Below are positions 17,301 to 23,300 of a stretch of DNA of 64,000 nt, piece after piece. Origin of the DNA: Escherichia coli O157:H7. Its GTDB lineage: Bacteria > Pseudomonadota > Gammaproteobacteria > Enterobacterales > Enterobacteriaceae. The stretch's first letter is position 1. Each line of letters opens with the position of its first letter. Location: assembly GCF_013167455.1 (NCBI RefSeq), contig NZ_CP038328.1. The stretch is one strand, 5' to 3'. Made by a program: the position numbers.

Positions 17301-20300
17301 CTGCTGCTGGAGAACGACTGGTCCGGATATTTGCTGGCGATCGTTTGCCTCATTGCCGCACAAATCATTGCCCGCATGATGATCAAATTCCCCGAACACC
17401 GCCGTGCTCTTTGGCAAATTGTATTGTTGATGTTTGTCGGGACATTGTTCTGGGTACTGGCACAACAGGGCGGCAGTACCATCAGCTTGTTTATCGATCG
17501 CTTTGTGAATCGTCAGGCATTCAATATTGAAGTACCTACTGCACTATTCCAGTCGGTGAATGCAATTGCGGTGATGCTCGCTGGGGTTGTTCTGGCCTGG
17601 CTGGCGTCGCCAGAAAGCCACGGCAACTCAACATTGCGCGTCTGGCTGAAGTTTGCCTTTGGCTTACTGCTGATGGCTTGTGGCTTTATGTTGCTGGCAT
17701 TTGATGCCCGACATGCAGCAGCTGACGGTCAAGCGTCAATGGGCGTGATGGTATCCGGGCTGGCGCTAATGGGCTTTGCCGAACTCTTTATTGACCCGGT
17801 GGCGATTGCGCAAATCACGCGTCTGAAAATGTCTGGCGTATTAACCGGGATTTATATGCTGGCAACAGGCGCGGTCGCCAACTGGCTGGCAGGCGTAGTG
17901 GCACAGCAGACGACAGAGTCGCAAATTAGCGGTATGGCAATTGCAGCTTACCAGCGATTCTTTTCTCAGATGGGAGAGTGGACGTTGGCTTGTGTCGCGA
18001 TCATCGTGGTATTGGCCTTTGCTACCCGTTTCCTGTTTAGCACGCCGACGAATATGGTACAGGAGAGCAACGATTAACTGTCGTAAAAACAATTGGTTAT
18101 GAATAAATTAACTTTCAGTTTATCACACTAGTAAATCGAGATTAATAAGTCATTTAAACCATTTTGATGGTTATTTATTAGTGATATCAACTTGAGGTAA
18201 GCGTTAGTTTCGATAAGATAAACTGAGTTATTAATAGTCGAGGCAGATAATACAGTGTACCGATCTGTCTCTTTATCTACGCTAAATTGAAAGCTGGATT
18301 TAGAGGAACCAAAATGTCTGAACAAGAAACACGGGGAGCCAATGAGGCTATTGATTTTAACGATGAACTGAGAAATCGCCGCGAAAAACTGGCGGCACTA
18401 CGTCAGCAAGGTGTGGCGTTTCCCAATGATTTTCGCCGCGACCATACCTCTGACCAGTTGCACGAAGAGTTTGATGCGAAGGATAACCAGGAACTGGAAT
18501 CCTTAAACATTGAAGTCTCGGTTGCTGGCCGAATGATGACCCGTCGTATCATGGGGAAAGCCTCCTTTGTAACGTTGCAGGATGTCGGTGGCCGTATTCA
18601 ACTGTACGTCGCACGAGATAGCCTGCCAGAAGGTGTTTATAACGATCAGTTTAAAAAATGGGATCTGGGTGACATTATCGGTGCCCGCGGTACGCTGTTT
18701 AAGACGCAAACGGGTGAGCTTTCCATTCACTGTACTGAGTTGCGCCTGCTGACTAAAGCACTACGTCCTTTACCAGATAAATTCCATGGTCTGCAGGATC
18801 AGGAAGTCCGTTATCGTCAACGTTATCTGGACCTCATCGCTAACGATAAATCCCGTCAAACGTTTGTTGTCCGTTCAAAAATTCTGGCCGCTATCCGCCA
18901 GTTCATGGTCGCGCGCGGCTTTATGGAAGTAGAAACCCCGATGATGCAGGTAATTCCAGGTGGGGCATCTGCTCGCCCGTTTATTACCCATCATAATGCT
19001 CTGGATTTAGATATGTATCTGCGTATCGCGCCGGAGCTGTATCTGAAACGTCTGGTTGTAGGCGGTTTTGAACGGGTATTCGAAATCAACCGTAACTTCC
19101 GTAATGAAGGTATTTCTGTTCGCCATAATCCTGAGTTCACAATGATGGAACTCTACATGGCGTATGCGGATTACCACGATTTGATTGAACTGACAGAGTC
19201 CCTGTTCCGCACCCTGGCACAAGAGGTTCTGGGTACCACTAAAGTCACTTATGGCGAGCATGTGTTTGATTTCGGCAAACCGTTTGAAAAACTCACCATG
19301 CGCGAAGCAATCAAAAAATATCGTCCAGAAACCGATATGGCCGACCTGGATAATTTTGATGCTGCTAAAGCATTAGCTGAATCTATCGGTATTACGGTAG
19401 AGAAAAGCTGGGGGCTGGGACGTATTGTCACGGAGATCTTTGATGAAGTGGCAGAAGCACATCTGATTCAGCCAACCTTTATTACGGAATATCCGGCAGA
19501 AGTGTCACCGCTGGCACGCCGTAATGATGTTAACCCGGAAATCACCGACCGTTTTGAATTCTTCATCGGTGGTCGTGAAATCGGTAATGGTTTTAGCGAA
19601 TTAAACGACGCAGAAGATCAGGCTGAACGTTTCCAGGAACAGGTTAACGCTAAAGCCGCAGGTGACGACGAAGCCATGTTCTATGACGAAGATTACGTGA
19701 CTGCGCTGGAATATGGTCTGCCGCCAACCGCTGGTCTGGGTATTGGTATCGACCGAATGATTATGCTGTTTACTAACAGCCATACTATTCGCGACGTTAT
19801 TCTCTTCCCGGCGATGCGCCCACAGAAATAAATTTCACTTTAATGAACGAAGCAGTCAGGCGACTGCTTCGTTCATCGTTCCGCAAATCCAGTTTTGAGG
19901 AGAGACGCTTCGTTTCACGATAACCAGCGGGTCCACTCAACTACAGCTCCTAAAAGAGAGAAAAAAGTAATGCCACAGGCAGACTCATTGGCCAGGTTAT
20001 TCCGACCAGGAATGCACTAAGTAAACGAATATGTGTTTTCTCATGTGAGATAAACCAGATAATGACAAAGGATATGTTCACACCAATCACATAAAAAATT
20101 AATATTTTAGAGAATAGTGCCATTTTTTATGTTCTTCTTATCCTTACTGGCTACTTGTAAAACTGACGGAAATAGTCATCAACTGTCATAATGTTGAGGT
20201 CAAAGTCAATATCCGGTAAGTCTAAGCATTTAAGCCTGATTAAATCTTCGATTTCACTTGCGGCTAACGATGTCGTTATTGCGAAGGAATTTTCATTCAA

Positions 20301-23300
20301 TTGTCGTGGTATCCCATATTCATCAGCCACGATAGAAGAGAAATTCATATCATACATCAATGATCTTAACCTTAAGAACACTGAGGAATAAGATGATGGA
20401 TAATCAAAAGAAACAACATAAGTATTGAACTTGTTTTTACCTTCCATAATATGACTCCTATAAATATTGAACACTCTGGGGACGCAAAATTTATTAACCC
20501 CGATTGATGATTCTCATATAGGAGATATTCTTTTTTTTGCTCAGTAAAGGGGATGACTTGGGACAAAAAAACGCGCTCTCTGCCCATTCTTTGTGCATCC
20601 CCCTACCCTTCAGATGCTCTCCTGCATCACACCGCGGAGAGCATGAAAAATATCGTGAATCTGTACTCTTCCATCAACTGCGAATATCATCATACTCCCG
20701 CGTTTTATCAAATTCGTGTTTCGCAAATGGACATAATGGGATAATTTTTCGTTTTTCCCGACGCATTTTTTCCACGACTTTCGCAACCAGCTGTTTACCA
20801 ATCCCTTGCCCTTTCAGGCTTTCATCGACATCGGTATGTTCGATAATCGCTAAATTCTCTCCGGTCGGCACAAAGACAATTTCAGCGATTTGCTTGCCTT
20901 GTTCGTCATTAATGTAAAATTTATTGTGGCCTTCGCGTATTTCCATTTTACCCTCGCTTATTTATGACGGTATTTCAGCGCACCACTCGGGCACGTATCA
21001 ATCACTTTAACCACAGTGGCAACGTCGACTTCATCCGGCATGATCCACGGCTTTCGTTTGAGATTAAATAACTTGCCGTTGCCACGTACGCAATTGCCAG
21101 AATGCTGACATATCGCAGTGTTGAAATAGACATCGATCTTTTCGCCGGTATAACAGCGATAACCCCCGTCCAGTAGCGCCTGATCCATGACCTTCCCTCT
21201 CTCATCAGTATGGTTTTCACTATAAGCATAGCCCTGGAATCTTCATACAGCACTGGCAGTTTCCGTTGCCAGAGTCTCTTCCCCTATATAGCCAATCATT
21301 CTTACTCCCTTTGAATTACCCGCCTCATCAGAGATAATGCTTAAGAAATTTGTCACACAAGGAAGCTGATGAGACATTCATTGCCCTACCGCATGTTACG
21401 CAAACGTCCGATGAAATTGAGTACCACAGTGATCTTAATGGTCAGCGCGGTACTGTTCTCGGTGCTATTGGTGGTGCATCTGATTTACTTCTCGCAAATC
21501 AGTGATATGACGCGAGACGGGCTAGCCAACAAGGCACTGGCAGTGGCGCGTACTCTCGCCGACTCGCCGGAAATCCGTCAGGGCTTGCAGAAAAAACCGC
21601 AGGAGAGCGGCATCCAGGCCATCGCGGAAGCCGTGCGCAAACGCAACGATCTGCTGTTTATTGTCGTTACCGATATGCAAAGTCTTCGCTACTCGCATCC
21701 TGAAGCCCAGCGTATTGGTCAGCCATTTAAAGGTGATGACATCCTTAAAGCGCTGAATGGCGAAGAAAATGTCGCTATCAATCGCGGTTTTCTGGCGCAG
21801 GCTTTACGCGTATTTACCCCCATCTACGATGAAAATCATAAACAAATTGGCGTGGTGGCGATCGGCCTTGAGTTAAGCCGCGTGACCCAACAGATCAATG
21901 ACAGTCGCTGGAGCATTATCTGGTCGGTATTATTTGGCATGCTGGTCGGACTGATTGGCACCTGCATTCTGGTTAAGGTACTGAAAAAAATCCTTTTCGG
22001 CCTGGAACCCTACGAAATCTCCACGCTGTTTGAGCAACGCCAGGCCATGTTGCAGTCTATCAAAGAAGGCGTCGTTGCCGTGGACGATCGCGGCGAGGTC
22101 ACGCTGATCAACGATGCCGCACAAGAATTGCTGAATTACCGTAAGTCGCAGGACGATGAGAAACTGTCGACGCTCAGCCACTCATGGTCACAGGTGGTAG
22201 ATGTCTCGGAAGTGTTACGCGACGGTACGCCGCGCCGCGACGAAGAGATTACGATTAAAGACCGGCTATTACTGATCAACACCGTTCCGGTGCGCAGTAA
22301 TGGCGTTATCATCGGTGCCATTTCAACCTTCAGGGACAAAACTGAAGTTCGTAAACTGATGCAGCGACTCGACGGTCTGGTCAACTATGCTGATGCACTT
22401 CGTGAACGATCCCACGAATTTATGAATAAATTGCATGTGATTCTCGGATTATTGCATCTGAAGAGTTATAAGCAGTTGGAAGATTACATTCTCAAAACAG
22501 CCAATAACTATCAGGAAGAGATTGGCTCTCTGCTGGGTAAGATCAAATCTCCGGTTATCGCTGGTTTTTTAATCAGCAAGATTAACCGCGCGACCGATTT
22601 AGGCCATACGCTGATTTTAAACAGTGAAAGCCAGCTGCCAGACAGCGGCAGTGAGGACCAGGTCGCGACGCTGATTACCACATTGGGAAATCTGATAGAA
22701 AACGCGCTGGAAGCATTAGGGCCGGAACCCGGTGGCGAAATTAGCGTAACATTGCACTACCGTCACGGCTGGCTGCACTGCGAAGTTAACGATGATGGAC
22801 CGGGGATCGCACCCGACAAAATCGATCACATTTTTGACAAAGGTGTCTCGACAAAAGGAAGCGAGCGAGGCGTCGGTTTAGCACTTGTCAAACAACAGGT
22901 AGAAAATCTCGGCGGCAGCATCGCCGTGGAATCGGAACCCGGGATTTTCACACAATTTTTTGTCCAGATACCCTGGGACGGGGAGAGGTCGAACAGATGA
23001 TCAATGTATTAATTATCGATGACGACGCAATGGTCGCGGAGCTGAATCGCCGATACGTAGCACAAATCCCAGGCTTTCAATGCTGTGGAACAGCCTCGAC
23101 GCTGGAGAAAGCCAAAGAGATTATCTTCAATAGCGATACGCCTATCGACCTGATATTGCTCGATATCTATATGCAAAAAGAGAACGGGCTCGATTTACTG
23201 CCTGTCCTGCATAACGCGCGTTGCAAAAGTGATGTGATTGTCATCTCCTCCGCAGCCGATGCGGCAACCATTAAAGATTCGCTGCATTACGGTGTCGTGG

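Follow-up and report, generated by a model that had tools for sequence, protein, structure and literature searches.

The ghoS–ghoT operon in an Escherichia coli O157:H7 genome: architecture, conservation and reach of the proposed type V mechanism

The two genes of the locus

The window—the whole stretch of 64,000 nucleotides of E. coli O157:H7 DNA that was analysed—carries on its minus strand the genes ghoS and ghoT. The antitoxin gene ghoS (yjdK) occupies positions 20151..20447 (minus strand) and encodes 98 residues from an ATG at 20447 to a TAG stop at 20151. In the ORF listing, the frame begins at a GTG further upstream and amounts to 107 aa; the 98-aa protein is annotated from the ATG, which has an AGGAG motif 7 nt on its 5′ side. 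The protein scores 138.8 bits against the Pfam family PF11080 (cut-off 21, E = 6.1e-41) and is identical over 98/98 residues (100%, E = 7.8e-62) to chain A of PDB entry 2LLZ, which bears the name "Uncharacterized protein yjdK". RefSeq lists it as "endoribonuclease antitoxin GhoS" (WP_000398619.1). GhoS is described as an endoribonuclease that cleaves ghoT mRNA, with R28 as the most important residue for RNase activity (PMC4010927), and this residue is present here in the motif FLRLRSLM. The identical K-12 protein is reported to act on the toxin mRNA enzymatically, without binding the toxin protein (PMC4010927, PMC8610362). GCT occurs three times on the sense strand of ghoS (nt 121, 213 and 221).

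The toxin gene ghoT (yjdO) lies at 19950..20123 (minus strand) and encodes a two-helix membrane peptide of 57 aa from an ATG at 20123 to a TAG stop at 19950; its coding sequence is free of GCT. Residues 4–57 match the Pfam family PF10753 (Toxin_GhoT_OrtT) over profile positions 1–55 of 55, with 90.4 bits (cut-off 22.1, E = 8.9e-26), and RefSeq names at the matching coordinates a "type V toxin-antitoxin system toxin GhoT" (WP_001173343.1). The peptide is strongly hydrophobic (GRAVY 1.50) and features hydrophobic segments at approximately residues 3–26 and 34–57, joined by the polar loop SHEKTHIR. As judged by Kyte–Doolittle averages over 15 residues, hydropathy exceeds 1.6 over residues 1–27 and reaches 1.1–1.7 over residues 31–57, with a trough at residues 22–41. 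For the identical K-12 protein, membrane damage and loss of ATP are reported (PMC4344625, PMC8610362). An earlier note, made from the sequence, had described two minus-strand ORFs 27 nt apart and a 57-aa peptide, and both the spacing and the quoted peptide are reproduced here, the latter letter for letter. That the toxin gene was missing from the ORF track, as the same note had pointed out, is explained by its length, since 57 aa falls short of the 60-aa default of the ORF lister. With such a cut-off, a genuine toxin gene that has been characterised by experiment goes unseen, which matters a little as an annotation check, and a gene of this kind can be recovered by a reader using the sequence alone.

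A short frame of this kind might instead be a chance ORF in the AT-rich DNA 3′ of ghoS. The frame is indeed below common ORF-length cut-offs, has no canonical Shine–Dalgarno sequence at optimal spacing—in the spacer, AAGGA lies far from the ATG (17 nt), and the closer GAAGAA (8 nt) is a weak stretch of purines—and matches no NCBIfam model. The last point, which applies to GhoS as well, is uninformative since RefSeq names both proteins by other means. The probability of a chance frame is negligible: this reading is refuted by the Pfam match across the full profile, by intact GhoT homologues of 57–60 aa that adjoin diverged GhoS genes and by the conservation of the DNA, with at least 99% identity in 4319/5283 E. 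coli genomes for ghoT versus 1359/5317 for ghoS. The RefSeq annotation covers ghoT, too.

Transcript layout and flanking sequences

The ghoS–ghoT spacer (20124..20150, minus strand; 27 nt), as read from the sequence, is A-rich, with a GC content of 0.296 and no GCT. A consensus scan finds no minus-strand promoter-like or terminator-like site within it, which fits a single bicistronic transcript, and a ghoS–ghoT mRNA is referred to in the literature (PMC5408214). Most likely, both genes are transcribed from the minus strand as one bicistronic mRNA. Downstream, where ghoT and lysU converge, an inverted repeat with perfectly matched 15-bp arms and a loop of 4 nt (19843..19876) lies between their 3′ ends; it is a candidate for a bidirectional terminator hairpin serving both genes. 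The hairpin is the main element of the centroid fold computed for the 3′ region of ghoT (MFE −42.9 kcal/mol, z −3.4). Lacking a subsequent T-run, it escapes the consensus terminator scan. Among relatives, the hairpin is kept in L007 and absent in L004. The gene lysU itself is located on the plus strand (18314–19831) and converges with ghoST; its earlier placement on the minus strand, with ghoST downstream of it, was wrong.

Upstream, 226 nt separate yjdJ and ghoS (20448..20673, minus strand), and this intergenic region presumably contains the ghoST promoter and 5′ UTR. A repeat search places a 9-bp hairpin at 20614–20644, just past yjdJ. The only minus-strand sigma-70-like site of the consensus scan is situated at 20711–20683, inside the 3′ end of yjdJ, and the number of sites does not exceed that in shuffled sequences (5 versus 4.0 ± 2.2); the scan thus does not locate the ghoST promoter. 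An 11-bp perfect inverted repeat (20132–20122 and 20099–20089) that would occlude the ghoT start codon was considered and rejected as a supported feature. The repeat is rare in shuffles (0.7%); against it stand its composition—all A/U save one C–G pair, worth only −6 kcal/mol—its absence from the regional MFE fold and its lack of conservation in L004. A search of the ghoST locus against Rfam gives no RNA family match.

The GC content amounts to 0.351 in ghoT, 0.347 in ghoS, 0.414 in yjdJ and 0.476 in yjdI, compared with 0.479 in lysU, 0.502 in dcuS and 0.519 in the whole window. The AT-rich block that the earlier note had extended over ghoST, yjdJ and yjdI is thus real for ghoST and moderate for yjdJ, whereas yjdI is no more AT-rich than lysU.

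Identity and chromosomal residence

The locus is, with high confidence, the canonical chromosomal ghoS–ghoT operon of E. coli, the founding type V toxin–antitoxin system, in an O157:H7 genome. Compared with E. coli O157:H7 PV15-279, in whose genome RefSeq gives both genes their type V names, the window shows 100% identity. The assignment to ghoST proposed from the sequence is borne out by the two Pfam matches, both far above the gathering scores, by the identity with 2LLZ and by the RefSeq names, and nothing speaks against the identification of GhoS and GhoT. A lack of similarity to GhoT/GhoS family members, the refuting outcome named in the earlier note, is clearly not the case. Both RefSeq proteins also occur in K-12 W3110, the strain background used to characterise the system, and the type V class was defined on ghoST (PMC8610362). 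The pair is already known and well studied, and its recovery is a correct but ordinary find, since the proteins match those investigated in laboratory strains residue for residue.

At a coverage of at least 80%, ghoT is present in 5272/5426 and ghoS in 5285/5426 complete E. coli genomes. Approximately 97% of the 5,426 genomes carry ghoST, at the same chromosomal position and with a median of one copy. This distribution bears on whether ghoST is a core-genome module or a mobile or defence island of recent acquisition. The latter is suggested by the composition of ghoST (GC 0.35 and GC3 0.36–0.38 versus a window GC of 0.52, with a GC3 of about 0.58 in dcuS, dcuR and dtpC), by cryptic-clade relatives that have decarboxylase and permease genes upstream in place of yjdIJ and by a tRNA-Phe gene about 9.5 kb from ghoST. 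Against it stand the constant position and copy number, and no integrase, repeat or IS element was found to flank ghoST within the window. Relatives hold ghoST beside lysU or cad-like genes, and the GhoS matches in the plasmid collection are few and all from Escherichia, three of them in records of 4.8–4.9 Mb, i.e. of chromosome size, and the others in records of 94 kb–1 Mb. A recent mobile origin is very improbable, and ghoST is an old resident of the chromosome, its ultimate origin aside.

Diverged relatives and disrupted alleles

The family of GhoS is very small, with only 37 matches among 1.84 billion representative proteins. Down to a GhoS identity of 54%, all relatives have the two genes side by side, as does one relative at 31% (L013); the pairing is kept in L004, L007, L011 and L013, even with other upstream neighbours. 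Adjacent pairs occur in both gene orders and in varied neighbourhoods; in the distant pairs, the toxin gene precedes the antitoxin gene, the reverse of the order in E. coli. The position of R28 is occupied by R or K only in relatives of at least 53% identity; it is variable in more distant homologues and not conserved below approximately 50% identity. Near GhoS homologues of 27–33% identity (L020–L022), a six-frame hmmsearch detects no GhoT-like ORF. Conversely, GhoT/OrtT-family genes are found on 78 Pantoea plasmid records, and outside Escherichia, these records included, the plasmid collection contains no GhoS match. The plasmid collection was rejected on these grounds as a source of diverged ghoST loci.

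Natural insertions in ghoS include IS2 in L019 and IS1 in L006 and L003; in at least one of these isolates, L019, the 57-aa ghoT is intact. A GhoS fragment of 57 aa found in many assemblies (P0026) was considered as a possible common nonsense or IS allele; its contigs simply break off at nt 173 of ghoS, across several allelic backgrounds, which may reflect either a repeat insertion or an assembly break. A GhoS–GhoT "fusion" of 169 aa (P0003) requires two frame changes relative to the window and is taken as an assembly or gene-calling artefact.

Proposed mechanism and its generality

Gene identity, architecture, conservation and the asymmetry of GCU sites are established here. The RNase activity, the toxicity and the MqsR cascade are taken from secondary descriptions of the identical K-12 proteins in the literature. 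By these accounts, GhoT would insert as a small two-helix peptide into the inner membrane, damage it and lower ATP, yielding "ghost" cells, and GhoS, a Cas2-like endoribonuclease, would cleave the ghoT mRNA and thereby prevent translation of the toxin. In the cascade described in the literature, MqsR—a type II toxin and GCU-specific RNase—would cut the ghoS part of the transcript and spare the ghoT part, tipping the balance to the toxin. The lack of GCU sites for MqsR in ghoT is part of the literature model (PMC4344625, PMC10305079). The window matches this expectation: 3 GCT fall in ghoS and none in either ghoT or the spacer. However, shuffled or synonymously recoded versions of the 174-nt ghoT lack GCT in 7–9% of cases, and the numbers of GCT in diverged ghoT genes are 2, 1 and 4; the pattern is consistent with the MqsR model, and for these two reasons it is not strong independent evidence of selection. 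The role of MqsRA in the stress response has itself been questioned, as reported in PMC11205521.

The genes may be ghoS and ghoT and still not form a genuine, natural addiction pair. In that case, GhoT would be a small membrane peptide induced by stress, GhoS would bind or cleave RNA in a wider or different role, and the toxin–antitoxin behaviour would largely be an over-expression phenotype. The viability of a K-12 ghoS deletion strain, routinely used as a host, points in this direction, as does the lowering of some 20 further transcripts from purine and pyrimidine genes when GhoS is over-produced (PMC4010927). The same holds for the natural IS alleles of ghoS, including the one with intact ghoT, and for members of either family that occur alone: the toxins on the Pantoea plasmids and the orphan OrtT (PMC4344625) on the one hand and the distant GhoS homologues on the other. 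A review cautions, in addition, that many results on cross-regulation between toxin–antitoxin systems stem from artificial induction (PMC10305079). Yet the adjacency of ghoS and ghoT across diverged relatives, in both orders and in varied neighbourhoods, speaks for a functional link between them. Specificity is indicated by the report that GhoS neutralises GhoT and not its homologue OrtT (PMC4344625), and both genes are retained in nearly all E. coli genomes. On balance, the absence of a natural addiction pair appears unlikely, and the functional toxin–antitoxin pair remains the preferred reading. A strictly addictive mechanism is nevertheless weakened by the viable deletion, the IS alleles, the GCT pattern, which chance can produce and diverged ghoT genes do not share, the non-conserved R28 and the doubts about MqsRA.

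A related, similarly doubtful possibility concerns the family as a whole. The R28-dependent RNase, the antitoxin-first order and the GCU-free ghoT may be features of the Escherichia lineage rather than of the family, in which case the ancestral or primary role of GhoS could be a different one, the motif F36-x5-D42-x2-G45-IPR-x-L50 could be the real functional core and ghoST would not be a strict addiction module. This proposal draws on the mere 37 GhoS matches, the toxin-first distant pairs, the lack of conservation of both R28 and the GCU-free state, the lone GhoS homologues and the ghoS::IS allele with intact ghoT. The tiny family, the reversed order, the variable R28 and GCU pattern and the IS allele could aid in re-examining how general the mechanism is; these comparative side observations leave the identity of the locus in the window unchanged.

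Comparison with known systems

To our knowledge, ghoST is still almost the sole example of a type V toxin–antitoxin system. The GhoT/GhoS type V system of E. coli K-12 was reportedly described by Wang et al. in 2012 (Nat Chem Biol 8:855). The locus of the window features the same gene order, 27-nt spacer and GCU distribution as that of K-12, identical proteins and the same neighbours, with yjdI–yjdJ upstream and the convergent lysU downstream. Over 498 nt, six nucleotides differ from K-12 W3110: five are synonymous changes in ghoS, none falls in ghoT and the sixth, where O157 has T and K-12 has G, is located in the spacer. A few further SNPs relative to K-12 lie just upstream of ghoS.

GhoS is described as a structural homologue of Cas2 with catalytic residues in common (PMC4010927). 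This likeness is known from the literature; the Pfam search of the locus returns no Cas2 family at E ≤ 0.01, and, in contrast to Cas2, ghoS has no CRISPR array or cas gene near it. The GhoT homologue OrtT (YdcX) belongs to the same Pfam family, PF10753, and is likewise a membrane-damaging peptide of similarly small size. As an orphan toxin, OrtT has no antitoxin next to it; GhoS does not neutralise it, and its mRNA has two GCU sites (PMC4344625). Unlike OrtT, the peptide of the window has ghoS directly upstream and is GhoT itself. Type I membrane toxins such as Hok, TisB and Ldr are, like GhoT, small hydrophobic peptides of the inner membrane, and in both cases the antitoxin prevents their production by acting on the mRNA; the type I antitoxin is an antisense RNA, whereas the antitoxin of ghoST is a protein.

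Identity and gene organization

The locus at 19950–20447 is a canonical ghoST type V toxin–antitoxin operon that has been annotated and experimentally characterized before. The antitoxin gene ghoS runs on the minus strand from an ATG at 20447 to a TAG ending at 20151 (98 codons, with AGGAG 7 nt before the ATG) and is followed, after a spacer of exactly 27 nt, by the toxin gene ghoT (ATG at 20123, extending to 19950; minus strand, 57 codons). The earlier note had described the same arrangement on this strand, a 98-aa antitoxin ORF separated by 27 bp from a 57-codon ORF, and both coordinates and spacing agree. 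The ghoT translation obtained by reading the minus strand of 19700–20800 and listing its ORFs, MALFSKILIFYVIGVNISFVIIWFISHEKTHIRLLSAFLVGITWPMSLPVALLFSLF, is the very string quoted there. Its reported absence from the ORF track is explained as well—a frame of 57 aa falls under the default threshold of 60 aa. The ORF listing gives ghoS as 107 aa, starting from a GTG further upstream; the RefSeq-annotated form has 98 aa.

The 57-aa peptide matches PF10753 (Toxin_GhoT_OrtT) in Pfam from end to end with an E-value of 8.9e-26 and 90 bits (cut-off 22), and the 98-aa protein matches PF11080 (GhoS) with an E-value of 6.1e-41. Over all 98 residues, the latter is identical to the structure 2LLZ of the PDB, where the protein bears the former name of GhoS, YjdK. 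Several E. coli O157:H7 chromosomes are 100% identical over a 901-nt stretch around the locus. In one of them, NZ_AP018488.1, RefSeq annotates ghoT (WP_001173343.1) and ghoS (WP_000398619.1) at exactly matching positions, with yjdJ and yjdI as upstream neighbors and the lysine–tRNA ligase gene lysU (PGAP name lysS) downstream. Family matches, identity to 2LLZ, and RefSeq annotation thus bear out the proposed identification as GhoS and GhoT. The same two accessions denote the ghoT and ghoS proteins of K-12 W3110, so the type V system was defined on the very proteins found in the window. A nucleotide comparison of the 498-nt pair with K-12 shows six differences, of which five are synonymous substitutions within ghoS and the sixth falls in the spacer; ghoT is unchanged. 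Several further SNPs relative to K-12 cluster within 50 nt upstream of the ghoS start (20448–20500; for example, TTCAATATTTATAGG versus TTTAATATTGATAGG) and could affect a promoter or the 5′ UTR.

Genomic surroundings

Observation and interpretation in the earlier note are both correct save for two minor descriptive errors. It had placed ghoST downstream of lysU on the minus strand; the ORF listing and RefSeq both have lysU on the plus strand (18314–19831), and since ghoST is transcribed toward it, the two are convergent. It had also described the whole ghoST–yjdJ–yjdI block as AT-rich, which holds for ghoT and ghoS (GC 0.35) but is too wide, as yjdI (0.48) equals lysU (0.48); yjdJ has 0.41, dcuS 0.50, and the window on average 0.52.

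The region that separates the 3′ ends of ghoT and lysU contains an inverted repeat (19843–19876) whose 15-bp arms pair perfectly around a 4-nt loop. This repeat is the dominant element of the predicted fold of the region and plausibly serves as a terminator common to both genes. A consensus scan misses this hairpin because no T-run follows it on either strand.

Markedly AT-rich stretches also occur in the dtpC–lysU intergenic region (18078–18313, GC 0.31) and just past dcuR (about 23650–24250, GC 0.33–0.37). A tRNA-Phe (GAA) gene is located at 10404–10479, at a distance of about 9.5 kb from ghoST; in E. coli, genomic islands classically integrate at such genes. Elsewhere in the window, Rfam matches at gathering level comprise the sRNA STnc630 (40819–40984, minus strand, 178 bits) and three copies of naRNA4/CssrE, a REP-derived nucleoid-associated RNA (46651–46727 and 46751–46827, plus strand; 49304–49384, minus strand).

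Features bearing on the mechanism

In the literature, GhoS is described as an endoribonuclease cutting the ghoT message and, when over-produced, about 20 further transcripts; its structure is homologous to that of Cas2, its most important residue is R28, and it is itself not toxic (PMC4010927). GhoT damages the membrane, giving rise to ghost cells (PMC4344625; PMC8610362), and its homologue, the toxin OrtT, is not neutralized by GhoS (PMC4344625). The GhoT of the window features two hydrophobic stretches, at residues of approximately 3–26 and 34–57, with SHEKTHIR in between and a GRAVY of 1.50. In an O157:H7 isolate kept in bovine feces at 15 °C, ghoT was induced and ghoS was not (PMC5854682).

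The consensus scan found no promoter-like or terminator-like motif on the minus strand of the ghoS–ghoT spacer, which fits a bicistronic mRNA. The Shine–Dalgarno sequence of ghoS is strong and well spaced; upstream of the ghoT start, there is no more than a weak purine run and an AAGGA at some distance—a contrast that would favor translation of the antitoxin over that of the toxin. No Rfam family matches at the ghoST locus, so nothing points to an RNA antitoxin. An 11-bp perfect inverted repeat over the ghoT start codon (ACAUAAAAAAU/AUUUUUUAUGU with a 22-nt loop; 20132–20122 and 20099–20089, minus strand) occurs in only 0.7% of shuffles, but it is almost pure A/U at about −6 kcal/mol, lies outside the regional MFE fold, is not conserved in the related locus L004, and was rejected as a candidate.

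It has been proposed that MqsR, an RNase specific for GCU, eliminates the ghoS portion of the transcript while leaving the ghoT portion intact (PMC4344625; PMC5408214; PMC10305079). The distribution of GCT triplets on the sense strand agrees with this proposal: ghoS has three (nt 121, 213, and 221), whereas both the spacer and ghoT lack them. However, a ghoT free of GCT also arises by chance, at a frequency of 9% under mononucleotide shuffling and 7% under synonymous recoding; hence, the asymmetry fits the MqsR model but is not strong evidence alone. The stress role of MqsRA has, moreover, been questioned, as noted in a review (PMC11205521).

Distribution

Among 5426 complete E. coli genomes, ghoT is present at a coverage of at least 80% in 5272 and ghoS in 5285; the median copy number is one, and the position is the same. 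An identity of at least 99% is reached in 4319 genomes for ghoT versus 1359 for ghoS, so that ghoT is more conserved than ghoS in E. coli. Beyond Escherichia, the GhoS family has strikingly few members: when 5.8 billion proteins were searched from word seeds, 47 clusters emerged, nearly all from E. coli/Shigella and many of them fragments. HMMER, run exhaustively against 1.84 billion representatives clustered at 50% identity, gave only 37 matches at E ≤ 0.001; full-length proteins, with 26–59% identity, account for about a dozen. The toxin family is wider, with a GhoT/OrtT-family gene on 78 Pantoea plasmid records and no GhoS found outside Escherichia in the plasmid collection.

Natural disruptions of ghoS

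Independent IS insertions interrupt ghoS in natural E. coli. In strain ET220 (L003, 2248–3050), an IS1 sits at the start of ghoS, of which the first 50 nt remain; tRNA-Phe and yjdC lie on its other side, and the rest of ghoS, ghoT, lysU, and the 8-kb interval that leads to tRNA-Phe in the window are missing. In L006 (3001–3337), ghoS is interrupted by an IS1 end near nt 200, and in L019 (1–481), an IS2 end adjoins ghoS nt ~93, followed by an intact 57-aa ghoT and lysU. Together with the viability of a K-12 ghoS deletion strain (PMC4010927), these loci show that loss of GhoS with ghoT in place is tolerated in at least some backgrounds, which tempers a strict "addiction" reading.

In addition, contigs from many independent assemblies (L016–L018; 63 index blocks) end at one position, ghoS nt 173 (…GCAATAAC), in several allelic backgrounds; this may mark a frequent insertion site of a repeat or IS, or else an assembly artefact.

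Comparison with related loci

The ghoST locus is already known, and the comparative observations leave the feature of the window not novel; as small additions, they might be of interest to specialists who reassess type V systems. Among the loci compared, the pairing is not universal, and the locus decays in some lineages. In L009 (2841–2954; GhoS 59% identity), ghoS is intact, but of ghoT only a remnant of 37 aa without the first helix follows. In L014 (1050–1457; 65% over an aligned 69% of the query), ghoS has lost both its start and its stop codon and continues in frame into an intact ghoT, the 135-aa product having 91 member sequences. In L020–L022 (GhoS 27–33%), the available flanks contain no GhoT-like ORF (hmmsearch E > 1).

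Invariant positions of GhoS in the alignment of its homologues are M1, F36, D42, G45, and L50, within the motif F-S-x-x-V-A-D-x-x-G-I-P-R-x-L. Relatives with at least 53% identity have R or K at position 28; in more distant homologues this position varies. Diverged ghoT genes contain one to four GCT triplets. R28 and the GCU-free ghoT of the K-12 model, hence, do not hold across the relatives compared.

In L004 (GhoS 77%) and L007 (84%), ghoS precedes ghoT with spacers of 26 and 27 nt, respectively, and a decarboxylase and an amino-acid permease lie upstream, replacing yjdIJ in both; in L007, lysU is convergent downstream. L011 (2289–2788; GhoS 54%) and L013 (2305–2800; 31%) feature the toxin first, with 60 and 57 aa and spacers of 29 and 22 nt ahead of ghoS, which is the reverse of the antitoxin-first order of E. 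coli. The pair of L011 directly follows lysU on the same strand, whereas that of E. coli converges on lysU. Closer relatives thus keep the pairing whichever gene comes first, which supports a functional coupling of the two genes.
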